Virus record (IMG/VR): IMGVR_UViG_3300028412_000003
DNA length: 64,000 nt
From: a virus
Taxonomy: Duplodnaviria; Caudoviricetes
Reading direction: 5' to 3' (one strand)
Shown: in pieces, positions 1 to 49,031 of the stretch
Position numbering within the stretch: the first letter of the stretch is position 1
How the letters are laid out: each line of letters opens with the position of its first letter
Translations under genes and position numbers: made by a program
The notes under the pieces: model-generated
Told to the model about the DNA's origin: nothing
The model's input: only the letters and a program-made list of their open reading frames with translations
Databases searched by the model: none

Positions 1-53
1 GCTCGCACTTATTGCGTGCAGACTGCTACACGTTACATGGGATCGATGCGCGC

Positions 54-38912: not shown

Positions 38913-40037
38913 TTATCTTCCGTTATTAAATCTTGCTTGTTCTATCCTTGCTCTATAAGCAGGATCAGTCGGATTGCTATTTCCACCAGTTGCAGTTGTA
39001 ATTGAATTTTTACCACCATTACCTAATGATTTTGGAAACACAGTATTACTTATTGATCCGAGCAATGCAGGAGCGGCTGCTGTGGCAACAGTTCCTAACA
39101 AATTTAAACCTTCTTCTCTTAATCCACCTGATGTAAGTTTCTTTGCATTATTGAATGTATTAACACCTTTTAGTATGCTTCCTATTCCAAAATTACCAGA
39201 AGAAATGTCATCAAGAATAGACCCTACACCATCGGCAACACCGCCGGCGCCGAGAATAGTGCTTGTGCCTCCTCCTGCAACTCGTAACGGTGACGGAGTC
39301 AAATCATAATGTGTAGTAGCAAATCCTGCTGGATCTCCTTGTTTTACATTACCTCTTAAATAGAACACAGATTCATACGCAACCGTCATTTGATTAGCAG
39401 TAGGACTACTATCTGAATTATCTAACGAATCATGTCCCCATTGAGTAATAAGCGGATTAACTAATGAAAATCCTGTATAGGTTTGTCTTGCTAATTGATA
39501 TATTGTAATACGGTGAAAGAATGGTCTTCTCGATCCATTGTCTAATCCATATTTTTTTCTGTTTATTTCTGATCCTTTATATGAAGATCTAGGATCAAAG
39601 GATGAAGTAGTTCTCTCATCTACATAATTTCCATCTTTATAATAATAACGATAGTATGCTTCCATTAATGCGGTAGTAACACCAAAATTATCATCATGTA
39701 GTGTTATTTGCACCGGATCATATGTTATAGACGTTTGAAAGTTCTTTTTTCGATTGTATTGATTTCTCATCTCACTTTGTGCTTGAAATTTTGGTAAATC
39801 CACTGCTTTAACCAGCATATTAATTTCTTCTCTGTGTTTATTACTGAGAACAGGATTAAGTGCCAGTGCTTGAGGAGATAGTTCAAATACTACCTGATAA
39901 AGAAATTTACTTTTAGGTGCTAACCTAAAACTGTTTGCATTGTATAGATACGACGAATGTTTAAAATCCCCAAGATTACCTTTAGGATTAAGTGTACCTG
40001 ATACTAAATTATCGAGAAAGCCGTTTATTAAACTCAT
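38913..40037 (-). CDS. Tail-tube-like baseplate protein (gp48/gp54-like)
   Basis: Tube-fold pattern VKAVDLPKF...YDPVQITLHDD...NPLITQWGHD; next to the tube gene. Confidence 0.6.
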   Translation of the reverse strand: MSLINGFLDNLVSGTLNPKGNLGDFKHSSYLYNANSFRLAPKSKFLYQVVFELSPQALALNPVLSNKHREEINMLVKAVDLPKFQAQSEMRNQYNRKKNFQTSITYDPVQITLHDDNFGVTTALMEAYYRYYYKDGNYVDERTTSSFDPRSSYKGSEINRKKYGLDNGSRRPFFHRITIYQLARQTYTGFSLVNPLITQWGHDSLDNSDSSPTANQMTVAYESVFYLRGNVKQGDPAGFATTHYDLTPSPLRVAGGGTSTILGAGGVADGVGSILDDISSGNFGIGSILKGVNTFNNAKKLTSGGLREEGLNLLGTVATAAAPALLGSISNTVFPKSLGNGGKNSITTATGGNSNPTDPAYRARIEQARFNNGR

Positions 40038-44145: not shown

Positions 44146-44487
44146 ATGAGACCACTTTGTATATGCGGAATGCGTGCTGCCGCAGTTAATTATAAAAAAG
44201 AAGGACGAACATTTTATAGAAAGAAATGCGAGATTTGCCTCAAACACGGAGGAACAGGTCACGGGATCCCAAGATGGAAACAGAAGGGATACGTTAAAAA
44301 ATCAGAATGCGAAAAGTGTGGATTTAAAAGTAAACACTCGGAACAGTTTAATGTTTTTCATATAGATGGAAATCTTGACAACTGTCGATTAACAAACTTA
44401 AAAACGGTTTGTGCAAATTGCCAAAGAATTTTACATCTAAAAGATGCTAAAACATGGAAGCAAGGCGACCTAAGGCCAGATTTTTAA
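44146..44487 (+). CDS. Small HNH-like zinc-binding protein
   Basis: CEKC...HIDGN..N...NL..VCANC. Confidence 0.7.
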   Translation: MRPLCICGMRAAAVNYKKEGRTFYRKKCEICLKHGGTGHGIPRWKQKGYVKKSECEKCGFKSKHSEQFNVFHIDGNLDNCRLTNLKTVCANCQRILHLKDAKTWKQGDLRPDF

Positions 44488-45034: not shown

Positions 45035-45121
45035 CCTATTATACGATCGGGAATCATCATTGTTAATAATTTTAATAAGTATATCTTTCATACACCTATT
45101 TATTCTTAACCAACAAGAAAT

Positions 45122-45880
45122 CTAGCCGATGGTGAAGGAATACCCCACTCCGCCGGCTTCTTGATTTTGTAGTGCTAGGTCGAGTTTTTCCATTTCGGCT
45201 TGTGCTTCTGCTTTTAAAGAATCGCCATTTAGTGAAGAACCACCTTGAGGTCCTGCTATGGTTGCAAATTTAGAACGTGCTTCGCCTAACATATATTTAC
45301 ATGATGCAAGGGTATAATCCTTTATCCATTGCTGAGAAAGATAATCTGCTAACAAAATGCTATCCGGTCTATAATTATAAGCATAAAGCATCACTTCTTC
45401 TTTACCGCGAGGGCGTTGAAAGATTGTTAACTTGCGAGTAGGCATGTCCCATTTGTATGTTATAAATCCACCAAACATACGTCCAACTAGTTCTTGATAC
45501 TGAGCAAAGAAGTCGTAAGTTGCTAATCCGCCCATATTTGAACTTGAAAGTAAGTATGTATTAGTATAAGCAAGGTTGAATGGTTCAAAAACTGTTCCAC
45601 TTCCATCACCACCGCCGGATCTTGATCCAACTGACCTACGAAATATTTTTCGTACTTCTATTACTTCTTTTGGAAGAGTATACTCGTTTTGGTCTTTTAC
45701 TAATTCAAGAAAGATGTAACTTTCTTCAACAGAATTATCCGAACGTTGTCTGTATTTACTAAGTGCTTTTGACAAAGCAACTTCATAATGTATTGGATCA
45801 AGTTCTACATCAACCATACCTCCACCTAAGAAAGCATTAACGTAATCAAATATTTCTTGTTTTTCAGTAGCAGTTGCCAT
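45122..45880 (-). CDS. gp13: Neck/adaptor protein, gp13-like
   Basis: LGGGMVDVEL, WIKDYTLA..K..LGE.R.KF, GPQGG..LNG. Confidence 0.85.
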   Translation of the reverse strand: MATATEKQEIFDYVNAFLGGGMVDVELDPIHYEVALSKALSKYRQRSDNSVEESYIFLELVKDQNEYTLPKEVIEVRKIFRRSVGSRSGGGDGSGTVFEPFNLAYTNTYLLSSSNMGGLATYDFFAQYQELVGRMFGGFITYKWDMPTRKLTIFQRPRGKEEVMLYAYNYRPDSILLADYLSQQWIKDYTLASCKYMLGEARSKFATIAGPQGGSSLNGDSLKAEAQAEMEKLDLALQNQEAGGVGYSFTIG

Positions 45881-45891
45881 AGTATTCCTCC

Positions 45892-45915
45892 ATTCATATT
45901 TAGCTAAATATGAAT
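45892..45915. promoter_or_regulatory. Perfect 24-bp palindrome ATTCATATTTAGCTAAATATGAAT with back-to-back GCTAAATA boxes
   Basis: Read directly; lies between divergent gp13 and gp14-like genes. Confidence 0.75.
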
Positions 45916-45934
45916 AGTAATTAGGAGAAAGATC

Positions 45935-47089
45935 ATTCCACGTCTTAGCTTATATAAACCGGAACGCGGTAAAGATTATCAATTCTTTGATAAAACAATT
46001 GAAGAAATGTTTATTGTCGGCGGTACTGATGTATTTGTTCATAAGTATCTTGGACCAAAAAATCCATCTGACGAAGACGCAACAGCAGATCAACCACAGT
46101 ATGATAGTGTTAATGTCACTAACATACAGGATCTATTGTTTCTTGAGAATCGAGATAGAGATTACGAAGAGGACATTTATACCATTCGTGGAATTTATAA
46201 TGTACAAGATTTAGATTTTGACCTATCTCAATTTGGATTATTTCTCAGCAACGACGTATTGTTTATGACAATTCACATTAATAGATCTGTCAAGACGTTG
46301 GGAAGAAAAATAATAATAGGTGACGTAGTTGAGCTTCCTCATTTAATTGACGATTACGGATTAAATGACTTAGCTTATTCACTTAAAAGATTTTATGTAG
46401 TTGAGGATGTTACTAGAGCAGCTGAAGGATTTTCTCACACATGGTATCCACACCTTTATAGACTAAAACTAAAACAAATTTACGACGGTACTGAGTTTGC
46501 AGACATATTTGATAGACCGGCTGGCGAAAATGATGATACTACGTTGCGTGATGTAATGTCAATGTGTGCAAAAGAAATGGAAATTAATGCAGGAATTTTG
46601 GCTCAAGCCGAAGCCGATGCTAAAAAATCAGGATATGAAACTAATCATTACTACACTCTTGATTTAGACGAGAATGGAAAAGCAGTTATCAATACAGCAG
46701 ACGAAACAGATAGTTTTGTATCTGACGGAACGGTTGATCAAGTATATGGTAATCCTGACCGGTTGGGTTACAAAGGTTATCTAATTGGTTTAGATGAAGC
46801 ACCAAACGGAGCACCATTTGGTTCTGGTATCTCCTTTCCTACTAATAGCGCACCTGGTTCTTATTATTTAAGAACAGATTTTATGCCAAAAAGATTATTT
46901 AAGTACGACGGAACTCGTTGGGTTAATGTGGTAAGTGACGTAAGAGAAACACTTTCAAATACAGACACTCGTAAAACACAACTTGGAACGTTCATTAACA
47001 ATACTAATACTAGTGAAATTGGCGGCGAAACTATACAGGAACGTCAAAGTATCACCAAAGCACTACGTCCGCGCGCAGATAACGTATAA
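45935..47089 (+). CDS. Neck protein, gp14-like; probable ATT start at 45935 (track ORF begins 46007)
   Basis: AGGAG-7 nt-ATT, then PRLSLYKPERGKDY in frame with 46007; GDVVELPH, WYPHLYR. Confidence 0.7.
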   Translation: MPRLSLYKPERGKDYQFFDKTIEEMFIVGGTDVFVHKYLGPKNPSDEDATADQPQYDSVNVTNIQDLLFLENRDRDYEEDIYTIRGIYNVQDLDFDLSQFGLFLSNDVLFMTIHINRSVKTLGRKIIIGDVVELPHLIDDYGLNDLAYSLKRFYVVEDVTRAAEGFSHTWYPHLYRLKLKQIYDGTEFADIFDRPAGENDDTTLRDVMSMCAKEMEINAGILAQAEADAKKSGYETNHYYTLDLDENGKAVINTADETDSFVSDGTVDQVYGNPDRLGYKGYLIGLDEAPNGAPFGSGISFPTNSAPGSYYLRTDFMPKRLFKYDGTRWVNVVSDVRETLSNTDTRKTQLGTFINNTNTSEIGGETIQERQSITKALRPRADNV

Positions 47090-47100
47090 GGAGAGATACA

Positions 47101-48543
47101 ATTTCACAATTTTTTTATGATGGCCAGATTAGAAACTATCTAATTCAATTAATACGCATGTTGAGCAATTTTAAATATAAGGATGCAGGCGGCGAACATG
47201 AAATTCCTATTCTTTACGGAGACATGACACGTCAAGTAGCTAGTATATTACGAGAAAATTCAGAAAACAAAGTTCCTTGTGCACCTCGGATGGGTATTTT
47301 TATCACGGCACTTGAGCAAGATCGAGAAAATACAAGAGATCATTCGTTTGTTGGAAAGGTAAACATAAGAGAGCGTGCTTATGATTCTGACAATAATGAA
47401 TATCTTAACTATCAAGGAAAGAATTATACAGTTGAAAGGTTAATGCCAACTCCTTACAAGATGACAGTGCAAGTTGACCTTTGGACTACTAATACTGATC
47501 AAAAATTGCAGATACTTGAACAAATATTAATGATATTTCGTCCTCAAGTTGAAATACAAACAACAGATAACTATGTAGACTGGACTTCTCTCACTACGGT
47601 TAACCTTGATAGTATTAATTGGTCTAGTAGATCCGTTCCTCAAGGTATTGATGCAGAGATTGATGTAGCTTCATTAATTTTCTCTACACCAATTTGGATT
47701 AATCCGCCAGTTAAAGTTAAACGTCTTGGTGTTATTACCAATATTATTAATTCTATACATGACGAGCGCAAGGGAACAATTGAATTAGGTCTGTCAAGGC
47801 CGGAAGTTTCTGCTTATAGTGATACTGCAAGAGCAGGATCAACCGATGTAAATGGTATTAGAACTGCAACCACTAGCGAAACCGATCAATTAGTTAATAC
47901 CAATCATGAAAATTTTGATATAGTTATTAGTGGTAATACAATACAACTTGGTCAAAATGGATTGTTAAGTAATGTTAGTTGGCAAAGAGTTACTGAACCT
48001 CATCCAGGACAGTATCAAGAAGATATATCAAGAATTTATATTGTTCGTAAATTAAATACCTATATAGAAATGACGGGAACCTTTACTATTAATCCGCTGG
48101 ACGAAAGTAAAATAATAGTTAATTGGGATACTGATACCTTTCCAGACGATACAAGCATATCTGGTCCTGCCCGCAGTACCAATGCGTTTACTTCAATTGA
48201 TTATATAATTGATCCTTTAAGAACTAATCCAACTTCTCTCAAAACACCAGGTCTGCGTATCTTATTATTAGAAGATATAGGTAGTAGTGAAAATTCTTCC
48301 GGACCTACAGCATGGAAGAACTTAAATAATTCAGACTTTATAGCAAATGCAAATGATATAATTGAATGGACTGGATCTAATTGGGTTATAGTGTTTGATG
48401 CAAGTGAAAATACAGATGGATCTCTCACTTATACAACAAATCTAAATACAGGAATACAATATCGATGGGATGGTGAAGATTGGTTGTTGTCTGTCGACGG
48501 TGTTTACCCTGTAGGTACCTGGCGTCTTGAATTAAACGGTTAA
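47101..48543 (+). CDS. Tail completion/terminator protein, gp15-like; probable ATT start at 47101 (track ORF begins 47158)
   Basis: AAGGAG-7 nt-ATT, then SQFFYDGQIR in frame; IPILYG, PTPY, QKLQILEQIL..F.P. Confidence 0.75.
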   Translation: MSQFFYDGQIRNYLIQLIRMLSNFKYKDAGGEHEIPILYGDMTRQVASILRENSENKVPCAPRMGIFITALEQDRENTRDHSFVGKVNIRERAYDSDNNEYLNYQGKNYTVERLMPTPYKMTVQVDLWTTNTDQKLQILEQILMIFRPQVEIQTTDNYVDWTSLTTVNLDSINWSSRSVPQGIDAEIDVASLIFSTPIWINPPVKVKRLGVITNIINSIHDERKGTIELGLSRPEVSAYSDTARAGSTDVNGIRTATTSETDQLVNTNHENFDIVISGNTIQLGQNGLLSNVSWQRVTEPHPGQYQEDISRIYIVRKLNTYIEMTGTFTINPLDESKIIVNWDTDTFPDDTSISGPARSTNAFTSIDYIIDPLRTNPTSLKTPGLRILLLEDIGSSENSSGPTAWKNLNNSDFIANANDIIEWTGSNWVIVFDASENTDGSLTYTTNLNTGIQYRWDGEDWLLSVDGVYPVGTWRLELNG

Positions 48544-48593: not shown

Positions 48594-49031
48594 ATGACGC
48601 AGAAAATTACCGCAACAGGATCCTTGTTTTATAGTTTTGAAACAAAAAGATTTCTTTTACTGCATAGAACAGACAATAAACCCTGTTGGGGACTTGTCGG
48701 AGGTAAAACCGAAGAAGGAGAAACTCCTTGGCAAGGTTTGCAGAGAGAAATTCAAGAAGAAATTAGATTTGATGATAAAATTATCAAAACAATTCCTTTA
48801 GAAACTTTTGTTAGCAACGATGATAAGTTTCATTTTCATACTTATTTGTGCATAGTAAAGAACGAATTTGTTCCTATATTAAATGATGAACATGATGGAT
48901 GGGCATGGGTTTCGTACAATCAATGGCCAAAACCATTACATGTAGGTTTAACAAACACATTAAGAAGTAGAGTTAGTCGTACTAAATTAGAAACAGTCTT
49001 AACTCTAATAGACGAATTATTGGAAATTTAA
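48594..49031 (+). CDS. NUDIX hydrolase
   Basis: Nudix box GGKTEEGETPWQGLQREIQEEI. Confidence 0.9.
   Translation: MTQKITATGSLFYSFETKRFLLLHRTDNKPCWGLVGGKTEEGETPWQGLQREIQEEIRFDDKIIKTIPLETFVSNDDKFHFHTYLCIVKNEFVPILNDEHDGWAWVSYNQWPKPLHVGLTNTLRSRVSRTKLETVLTLIDELLEI

Follow-up and report, generated by a model that had tools for sequence, protein, structure and literature searches.

Probable AUU start codons of two adjacent head–tail-joining genes in a lake-water jumbo myophage, with a possible origin as scars of homing endonucleases

The 64,000-nucleotide (nt) stretch of viral DNA analysed here, referred to as the window throughout, carries the name of record IMGVR_UViG_3300028412_000003 (Duplodnaviria; Caudoviricetes) and stems from an uncultured lake-water jumbo myophage, for which the matching IMG/VR record spans 86 kb and is approximately 24% complete. 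Distant cultured relatives are Agrobacterium phage Atu_ph07, Sinorhizobium phage Phosso, Pseudomonas phage PA5oct and the 121Q/Rak2 group. Two consecutive genes for head–tail-joining proteins, gene 1 and gene 2, appear to initiate at AUU, each behind a strong Shine-Dalgarno (SD) sequence. The start sites and genes are as follows.

45922..45927, + strand: SD sequence UAGGAG of gene 1 (AGGAG core at 45923-45927, 7 nt before the AUU; duplex with the anti-SD −7.3 kcal/mol)
45935..45937, + strand: AUU initiation codon of gene 1 (from reading frame, family profile, orthologue alignment and codon comparison)
45935..47089, + strand: gene 1, encoding a 384-amino-acid (aa) virion protein, gp14-like neck/stopper (phrog_11591 match from residue 3; Foldseek)
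47087..47093, + strand: stop codon of gene 1 fused to the SD of gene 2, UAAGGAG (from the sequence; AAGGAG at 47088-47093)
47101..47103, + strand: AUU initiation codon of gene 2 (from frame, profile and orthologue alignment; bases the same in 4 runs)
47101..48543, + strand: gene 2, encoding a 480-aa T4 gp15-like tail sheath stabiliser/tail terminator (PF16724; match to gp15 in the PDB)

Both ATTs are in frame with long open reading frames (ORFs), which open at 45914 (after TGA 45911-45913) and 47083 (after TAA 47080-47082), while the first in-frame ATG, GTG or TTG is encountered only at 46007 in gene 1, 24 codons further on, and at 47158 in gene 2, 19 codons further on. The gene 2 AUU lies 7 nt past AAGGAG and 11 nt past the gene 1 stop. 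The first-pass annotation of this DNA had described AGGAG-7-ATT and AAGGAG-7-ATT units, in frame, equally spaced and followed by PRLSLYKP (gene 1) and SQFFYDGQIR (gene 2), and its coordinates and frames were verified. Its statement that no ATG lies near either SD holds for in-frame ATGs but not for out-of-frame ones, which occur at 45910 (a 4-codon ORF ending at TAG 45922-24) and at 47117 and 47120 (+1 frame, 7-8 codons). The AGGAG-N7-ATT pattern is not enriched in the window (5 observed against 3.2 expected); the placement of the two units exceeds chance, as they are the only strong-SD near-cognate sites of the window with at least 19 conserved codons before the first canonical start, and both ATTs sit exactly at the codon aligned with the start codons of the orthologues.

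Three other candidates at these sites were set aside. ATC 45932 has a poor SD spacing of 4 nt, the aligned codon of relatives always being 7-8 nt from the SD, and the +1-frame ATGs at 47117 and 47120 are dead ends of 7-8 codons produced by conserved Tyr-Asp codons. The mini-ORF upstream of gene 1 (ATG 45910, MNSN, TAG 45922) was considered as a coupling device and judged improbable, as the predicted late transcription start at 45916 would lie downstream of its ATG.

Orthologues were gathered by protein searches, giving about 160 loci (144 for gene 1 and 160 for gene 2; individual loci are designated by L numbers), and a second sample was obtained by pattern scans of IMG/VR for alleles with an ATH start. 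At the codon aligned with the gene 1 start, 115 of the 144 loci have ATG, 13 have ATC, nine TTG, six ATT and one ATA. For gene 2, 152 of 160 loci have ATG at the aligned or next codon and eight have ATT, the window among them. Taking both samples together, the start was found at the aligned codon (ATG, ATC, ATT, ATA or TTG) in approximately 300 loci. Tabulation of this codon had been suggested in the first-pass annotation, with ATG in orthologues counting as refutation; the table, in which ATG is dominant, does locate the start, but the proposed refutation was ill-posed, as AUU in the window is not contradicted by it.

The stretches ahead of the first ATG were read as coding because of three kinds of evidence. 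In an alignment of 37 diverse gene 1 orthologues, P2, S5, L6, D14, F17, D19 and E24 are invariant, and all of these precede Met25. When the window was compared with its closest relative, L083 (approximately 75% protein identity, i.e. about 25% diverged), 11 of 16 differing codons in the extension of gene 1 and eight of 13 in that of gene 2 were synonymous. Finally, the family profile matches begin at residues 2-5 of the AUU-initiated proteins. L083 itself starts gene 1 with AGGAG-7-ATA and gene 2 with AGGAG-6-ATT.

Callers restricted to ATG, GTG and TTG return 46007 and 47158, which could be the true starts if the upstream stretch were untranslated; equally, the ATTs, one base away from ATG, could be miscalled. 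Both possibilities are highly improbable. The downstream ATGs are contradicted by the invariant residues and synonymous bias upstream of them and by the profiles beginning at residues 2-5, and moreover Met25 of the window's gene 1 is a Gln in L083 and no SD was found before either ATG 46007 or ATG 47158. As regards miscalling, contigs of four lake-water runs showed zero differences at the ATT sites they cover: runs X1 (33x) and X2, each possibly the source of the window DNA, span both ATTs, while X3 and X4, which belong to other studies, extend over ATT 47101, so that 45935 is covered by X1 and X2 only. The IMG/VR record likewise has the same bases at both sites, in addition to the two to four independent assemblies at up to 33x, and a relative as diverged as L083 has ATA and ATT at the corresponding positions. 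The window and the IMG/VR record (G000) are near-identical but separate assemblies, one base differing at 45118 (A versus G) and indels falling within bases 1-470. Judged on the sequences, both the initiation of the two genes at AUU and the absence of a sequencing error are well supported, in agreement with the first-pass annotation, which had considered the double ATT unlikely to be an error; ATT 45935 and ATT 47101 appear to be the only plausible starts of the two genes. A phage-encoded initiator-like tRNA decoding AUU was also considered and is unsupported here, no tRNA gene having been found within the window, with the record only about 24% complete.

The proposal that both genes encode head–tail-joining parts is supported, by a Pfam match for gene 2 and by resemblance at the fold level for gene 1. 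Gene 2 matched PF16724 (T4-gp15_tss) with 79.5 bits (cut-off 25) over residues 5-223, profile position 2 falling on residue 5, and it matched gp15 in the PDB with E = 0.003. The family of gene 1, phrog_11591, is labelled 'virion structural protein', and at the sequence level no PDB match was obtained for gene 1. In Foldseek, the top matches of gene 1 were the T4 portal-neck-tail complex, gp13-gp14 assemblies, the P1 connector and the stoppers of phages 812 and T1, with E from 1e-4 to 1e-3 and template modelling (TM) values of 0.2-0.6 for a model whose mean predicted local distance difference test (pLDDT) score is only 58. By its predicted fold, the gene 1 product resembles a gp14-like neck/stopper protein. 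The region immediately upstream contains the following further features.

45122..45880, − strand: divergent gp13-like neck/adaptor gene (phrog_211; weak match to T4 gp13 in the PDB)
45892..45915, no strand assigned: perfect 24-bp palindrome ATTCATATTTAGCTAAATATGAAT between the gp13-like gene and gene 1 (opposite-strand self-match; CTAAATA boxes on both strands)
45904..45910, + strand: predicted gp55-type late promoter of gene 1, CTAAATA (from the box spacing of orthologues; predicted transcription start at about 45916)
45916..45934, + strand: 19-nt leader predicted for gene 1, which may be the scar of an inserted HNH homing endonuclease (from the graded series in relatives; homology of the window leader suggestive only)

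Because the neighbour at 45122-45880 is gp13-like and lies beside the gp14-like and gp15-like genes, the arrangement corresponds to the neck/terminator block formed by T4 genes 13-14-15. The PA5oct orthologues of genes 1 and 2 are adjacent, both have been detected in virions by mass spectrometry, and the same NUDIX gene comes next. In the window, this NUDIX/MutT-like gene (48594-49031) directly follows the gp15-like gene, which represents synteny across very distant jumbo phages.

The late box of T4 is located at −13 to −6, and phage Aeh1 uses CTAAATA (PMC1524935). In the window, TATAAATA-like late boxes, either CTAAATA or GATAAATA, precede the sheath, tube, fibre, neck and other genes, all of these promoters being predicted from sequence. 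The palindrome at 45892-45915 was read as a compact bidirectional predicted late promoter, from which the gp13-like leader starts at GGAGG (late box, GGAGG, 6 nt, ATG), and relatives keep a TATTTATC...GATAAATA inverted pair at the same site.

The orthologues use sharply different arrangements around the two starts. In the 70 unique contexts in which gene 1 starts with ATG, a distance of 4-8 nt (mode 5) separates the end of TAAATA from the ATG, and an SD is lacking, the anti-SD pairing energy (dG) being −3.9 or weaker. As the T4 box rule would put the transcript start at the A of the ATG, these alleles are probably leaderless. In all non-ATG contexts of gene 1 from the protein searches, TAAATA is instead found 21-25 nt upstream, and the start is preceded at 7-8 nt by AGGAG, with a dG of −7.3 or stronger and no overlap in energy with the ATG contexts. 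The pattern scans returned at least 117 contigs with ATH-start alleles of gene 1, representing 50 unique contexts, and (A/G)GGAG was present at 7-8 nt in 50/50. Of the 74 unique contexts in which gene 2 starts with ATG, 58 have this codon overlapping the stop of gene 1 (TAATG), whereas the ATT is never stop-overlapping and follows after gaps of 11, 59 or 543 nt, the longest of these in L129. On a tree of both proteins, four changes are needed for each non-ATG state. From this comparison, the SD-N7-AUU units are a recurrent type of cassette in this phage group, not isolated point mutations.

Probable leaderless late mRNAs were also noted elsewhere in the window, with starts at 40037, 31893, 37478, 23377, 44146 and 6427, where GATAAATA or TTAAATA precedes the ATG by 4-5 nt and no SD is present. 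The genes concerned include a tube-like paralogue, a virion protein, an HNH-like gene and a DnaB-like helicase.

Some relatives carry homing endonuclease genes precisely at these start codons. At the gene 1 site of L269, an intact HNH+NUMOD3 gene (Pfam) lies between the promoter and the ATT; this gene starts at the leaderless ATG and its end reaches over the start of gene 1, the SD being contained in its last codons and followed by the ATT. Relics occupy the same position in other loci, namely a collapsed 48-codon form in L172 and remnants of 72-108 nt in L254, L207 and L273, while L274 and L166 have leaders of 26 nt and 21 nt. The site thereby presents a graded series of 738, 150, 108, 75, 72, 26 and 21 nt, and an identical 16-nt tail is shared by L269, L172, L274 and L166.

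At the gene 2 site, GIY-YIG genes (Pfam) are located between the gene 1 stop and the ATT or ATC, and are intact in L129, L284, L310, L313 and L315. The ATG of such genes lies on the gene 1 stop and their ends fall 1-18 nt before the ATT or ATC (L129/L284, L286, L295, L315, L310, L313). The series at this site descends from 563/543 nt through relics of 71 to 31 nt, in which the beginning of the endonuclease coding sequence, its tail or both are preserved, to gaps of 11 nt. The 11-nt form, stop-GGAG-N6/7-ATT, was found in five lineages (the window, L083/L175, L125/L294, L145/L305 and L291). In L310 and L308, a dead mini-ORF upstream of the endonuclease gene or scar preserves the former start of gene 2 with the first 4-6 codons (MQQF in L308, MQQFFY in L310), and the live start is a second copy downstream beginning with ATT (codons I-S-Q-F). 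The presence of both a dead and a live 5' copy suggests that the cassette brings a duplicate gene 2 5' end with it.

A different arrangement was observed in L162/L287, where AAGGAGG is situated approximately 26 nt from the gene 2 ATT, with a clean 7-bp hairpin between the two (TTACGGT...ACCGTAG) and a relic of a GIY-YIG tail. In T4 genes 38 and 25, a hairpin brings the SD near the start, and the L162/L287 hairpin may act in the same manner. An SD-bridging hairpin was considered for L129/L143 as well and rejected, the minimum-energy folds being inconsistent and the clean 7-bp stem occurring only in L162/L287. Within the window, a small HNH-like ORF with a leaderless-type start (44146-44487, + strand; PHROG HNH endonuclease at 3e-5, Pfam HNH below the cut-off) lies between the sheath gene and a deoxynucleoside monophosphate (dNMP)-kinase-like gene, and may be a free-standing homing endonuclease near the neck module.

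The two sites of the window are both minimal, consisting of the 19-nt leader and the 11-nt gap, and neither a recognisable coding remnant of an endonuclease nor an endonuclease ORF is present in them. The gene 2 unit matches the endonuclease tail of L310 at 22 of 26 positions, most of which are functionally constrained, and at this junction the window's gene 1 contains one additional Val codon and a TAA. The gene 1 leader has only AGGAGAA, the spacing and the ATT in common with the endonuclease-derived leaders of relatives.

Several observations speak against deriving the window's cassettes from endonucleases. With 37-46% aa identity, the alleles bearing endonucleases are only remotely related to the window, and among the unconstrained positions shared with L310 about 6 of 10 agree, which is not significant; because of these two points, the scar origin of the window's cassettes rests on analogy with the relatives. 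The phylogenetically independent contrasts, although all informative ones point the same way, are too few to reach significance (4/4 for gene 1; 4/4 for gene 2, where 2 further ones are ties; p = 0.125 for each gene). SD-led ATG alleles of gene 1 exist in IMG/VR (12 contigs, 5 contexts), and SD strength fails to separate ATG from ATT contexts of gene 2. The cultured outgroups are SD-led with ATG as well (TAGGAG-5-ATG in PA5oct, GAGG-9-ATG in Atu_ph07), and the SD leader could therefore be ancestral. In L186, lastly, TAA-ATG comes immediately after a tail of GIY-YIG type (…KRVWMEI stop), which implies that a weak start is not an obligatory companion of a strong SD and that not every insertion yields a non-ATG start. 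A strict rule by which a strong SD equals a non-ATG start was accordingly abandoned: it held for gene 1 in the unbiased sample, was broken by the 12 SD-led ATG contigs that a targeted scan returned and fails for gene 2.

The main competing explanation is pure dosage tuning without any endonuclease history, in which an ancestral SD leader would have been kept and selection would have weakened the start to AUU for neck proteins needed at 6-12 copies. The SD-ATG leaders of the outgroups fit this proposal, as does the occurrence of four weak starts (ATT, ATC, ATA and TTG) behind the same type of leader, TTG not being one step from ATT. In the window, the same strong SD is combined with ATG (AAGGAG-5..8-ATG) in genes for abundant proteins, namely the sheath, tube, fibre, gp32-like and UvsX-like proteins, and non-canonical starts accompanied by extended SDs give approximately 10% output, i.e. 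about tenfold less, in S. aureus (PMC13009471). Nevertheless, SD-led ATG alleles persist in relatives, the adjoining gp13-like neck gene uses GGAGG-6-ATG, and dosage alone accounts neither for three endonuclease families carrying a 3' SD-ATT/ATC at exactly these sites nor for minimal leaders that have the 16-nt tail of the endonuclease. Dosage tuning as the whole explanation is therefore a possibility of secondary rank. The deliberate low-stoichiometry expression suggested in the first-pass annotation fared similarly: the strong SD-ATG starts of abundant window proteins are in line with it, but a purpose is not established, given the SD-ATG leaders of relatives and the start of the gp13-like neighbour.

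The first-pass annotation had also raised a coupling of head–tail joining to host initiation factor 3 (IF3), which is purely conjectural. In its general form, the neck genes would be kept in initiation classes disfavoured by IF3, so that their expression would track the host's IF3-to-ribosome ratio or growth state. Leaderless AUG, stop-start re-initiation and AUU all belong to classes reported as antagonised by IF3: leaderless mRNAs are among them according to bioRxiv 10.1101/2020.05.06.081141, IF3 overexpression lowers re-initiation (PMC2268962), and non-canonical starts are described as disfavoured by IF3 in PMC9723500. Furthermore, AUU mRNAs compete poorly at low temperature and when nutrients are limiting (PMC5499595). 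The leaderless class is, however, not specific to the neck, since the DnaB-like helicase and the HNH-like gene of the window belong to it too, SD-led ATG alleles exist, and the search for a phage IF3 gene, made on incomplete contigs, gave nothing; IF3 gating appears quite improbable. The search for IF3 (PF00707) covered the 86-kb record and the contigs of five relatives, all incomplete, with L083, L146 and L108 outside it, and its lack of matches is uninformative. As an observation apart, a 237-kb contig of a relative encodes a homologue of ribosomal protein bS21 (L163, G001:C1:121276-121425; PF01165, 63 bits), and none was found in the window's record.

It is also conceivable, though unlikely, that the change from ATG to ATT, ATC or ATA was imposed as a 'synonymous' recoding, by which an allele with an endonuclease or its scar would escape cutting by an endonuclease whose recognition site spans the start codon. 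A near-cognate start would then be needed because it is the sole change of the site that preserves the protein, and it would be rescued by the strong SD. Reversion to ATG would restore sensitivity towards relatives bearing the endonuclease in co-infections, and the weak start would therefore be held by conflict with a selfish element rather than by dosage. If true, a change of start codon could serve as nuclease immunity.

The explanation preferred here, to which a probability of about 0.6 is assigned, is that both genes are translated from AUU, that the cassettes are endonuclease scars and that the weak codon is tolerated or favoured on low-copy proteins. As far as sequence comparison reaches, the position of the starts, their conservation, the recurrence of the cassettes and the endonuclease series are established; for the SD-ATT cassettes of the window itself, the analogy with relatives tips the balance modestly towards an origin as scars. 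In this scheme, an endonuclease gene would capture the original ATG of its host gene, whether leaderless or TAATG-coupled, and the displaced gene would be re-started from an SD and ATT or ATC within the 3' end of the endonuclease, an HNH gene acting at the gene 1 start and a GIY-YIG gene at that of gene 2. Deletion would then leave minimal, endonuclease-free scars, whose weak codon would persist through tolerance or a slight advantage in genes for low-copy proteins.

Expression in the present-day phage would proceed from the gp55-type late promoter CTAAATA at 45904-45910, giving an mRNA from about 45916 with a 19-nt leader, in which UAGGAG would position the 30S subunit such that formylmethionyl (fMet)-tRNA pairs with AUU 45935. 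As UAAGGAG combines the stop of gene 1 with the gene 2 SD, gene 2 could be started at AUU 47101 either afresh or by ribosomes that have just completed gene 1. AUU output has been found 6-8 times below that of AUG (PMC3592434), and in the phage it may amount to about one tenth, which would suit proteins present at 6-12 copies per virion. A low yield of the two proteins would be a natural consequence of AUU initiation; deliberate tuning of their dosage is plausible, and is unproven because leaders with an SD and ATG also exist.

Several consequences follow from the AUU starts and the arrangement of the orthologues. Annotation by callers limited to ATG, GTG and TTG trims 24 and 19 conserved residues from the two structural proteins, and a non-ATG start of gene 1 is present in approximately 20% of contigs (29/144) in the protein-based searches, ATT in gene 2 being rarer (8/160). 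A single orthologous gene pair displays three interchangeable architectures, i.e. leaderless AUG, stop-overlap AUG and SD plus weak codon, and the switches between them would be tied to selfish endonucleases that take over host start codons and leave AUU-bearing scars. The alleles thus offer natural material on the trade-off of start-codon strength, SD strength and re-initiation.

Compared with T4 genes 13-14-15 and with EST35_0163/0162 of PA5oct, the window has the same module in the same order, and gene 2 of PA5oct is TAATG-coupled. As differences, the products of genes 1 and 2 in the window (384 and 480 aa) have large C-terminal extensions, the gp13-like gene is inverted, and both PA5oct orthologues start with ATG. 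Free-standing homing endonucleases are known from T4-like phages as the seg (GIY-YIG) and mob (HNH) genes (Edgell, Gibb and Belfort 2010, PMC2988022). Their counterparts in the relatives of the window, HNH+NUMOD3 and GIY-YIG/SegE-like genes, similarly lie between conserved late genes with a patchy presence, and, as at nrdA/mobE in T4-like phages, the ATG of the endonuclease overlaps the upstream stop (UAAUG). The review, in contrast, contains no start-codon take-over, no re-start of the host gene from an SD and AUU and no decay to AUU scars. AUU initiation and free-standing HNH and GIY-YIG genes are each known, and their combination, comprising take-over, SD-AUU re-start and scars, was not found in the searched literature.

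With regard to AUU itself, E. coli infC and pcnB have AUU start codons (Butler et al. 1986; Binns and Masters 2002, as cited in PMC3592434), and cvfC1, ccpN and infC of S. aureus combine AUU or AUA starts with extended SDs (PMC13009471). The window resembles these cases in that a near-cognate AUU would be read by initiator tRNA behind a good SD with reduced output, and infC further resembles gene 2 of the window in starting a few nt after the stop of the preceding gene. The differences lie in the products and in the history of the starts: the window genes encode phage virion proteins instead of regulators, with no evident autoregulatory logic, and the phage AUU units recur as mobile-element-associated cassettes that alternate with leaderless or stop-overlapping ATG in the orthologues.

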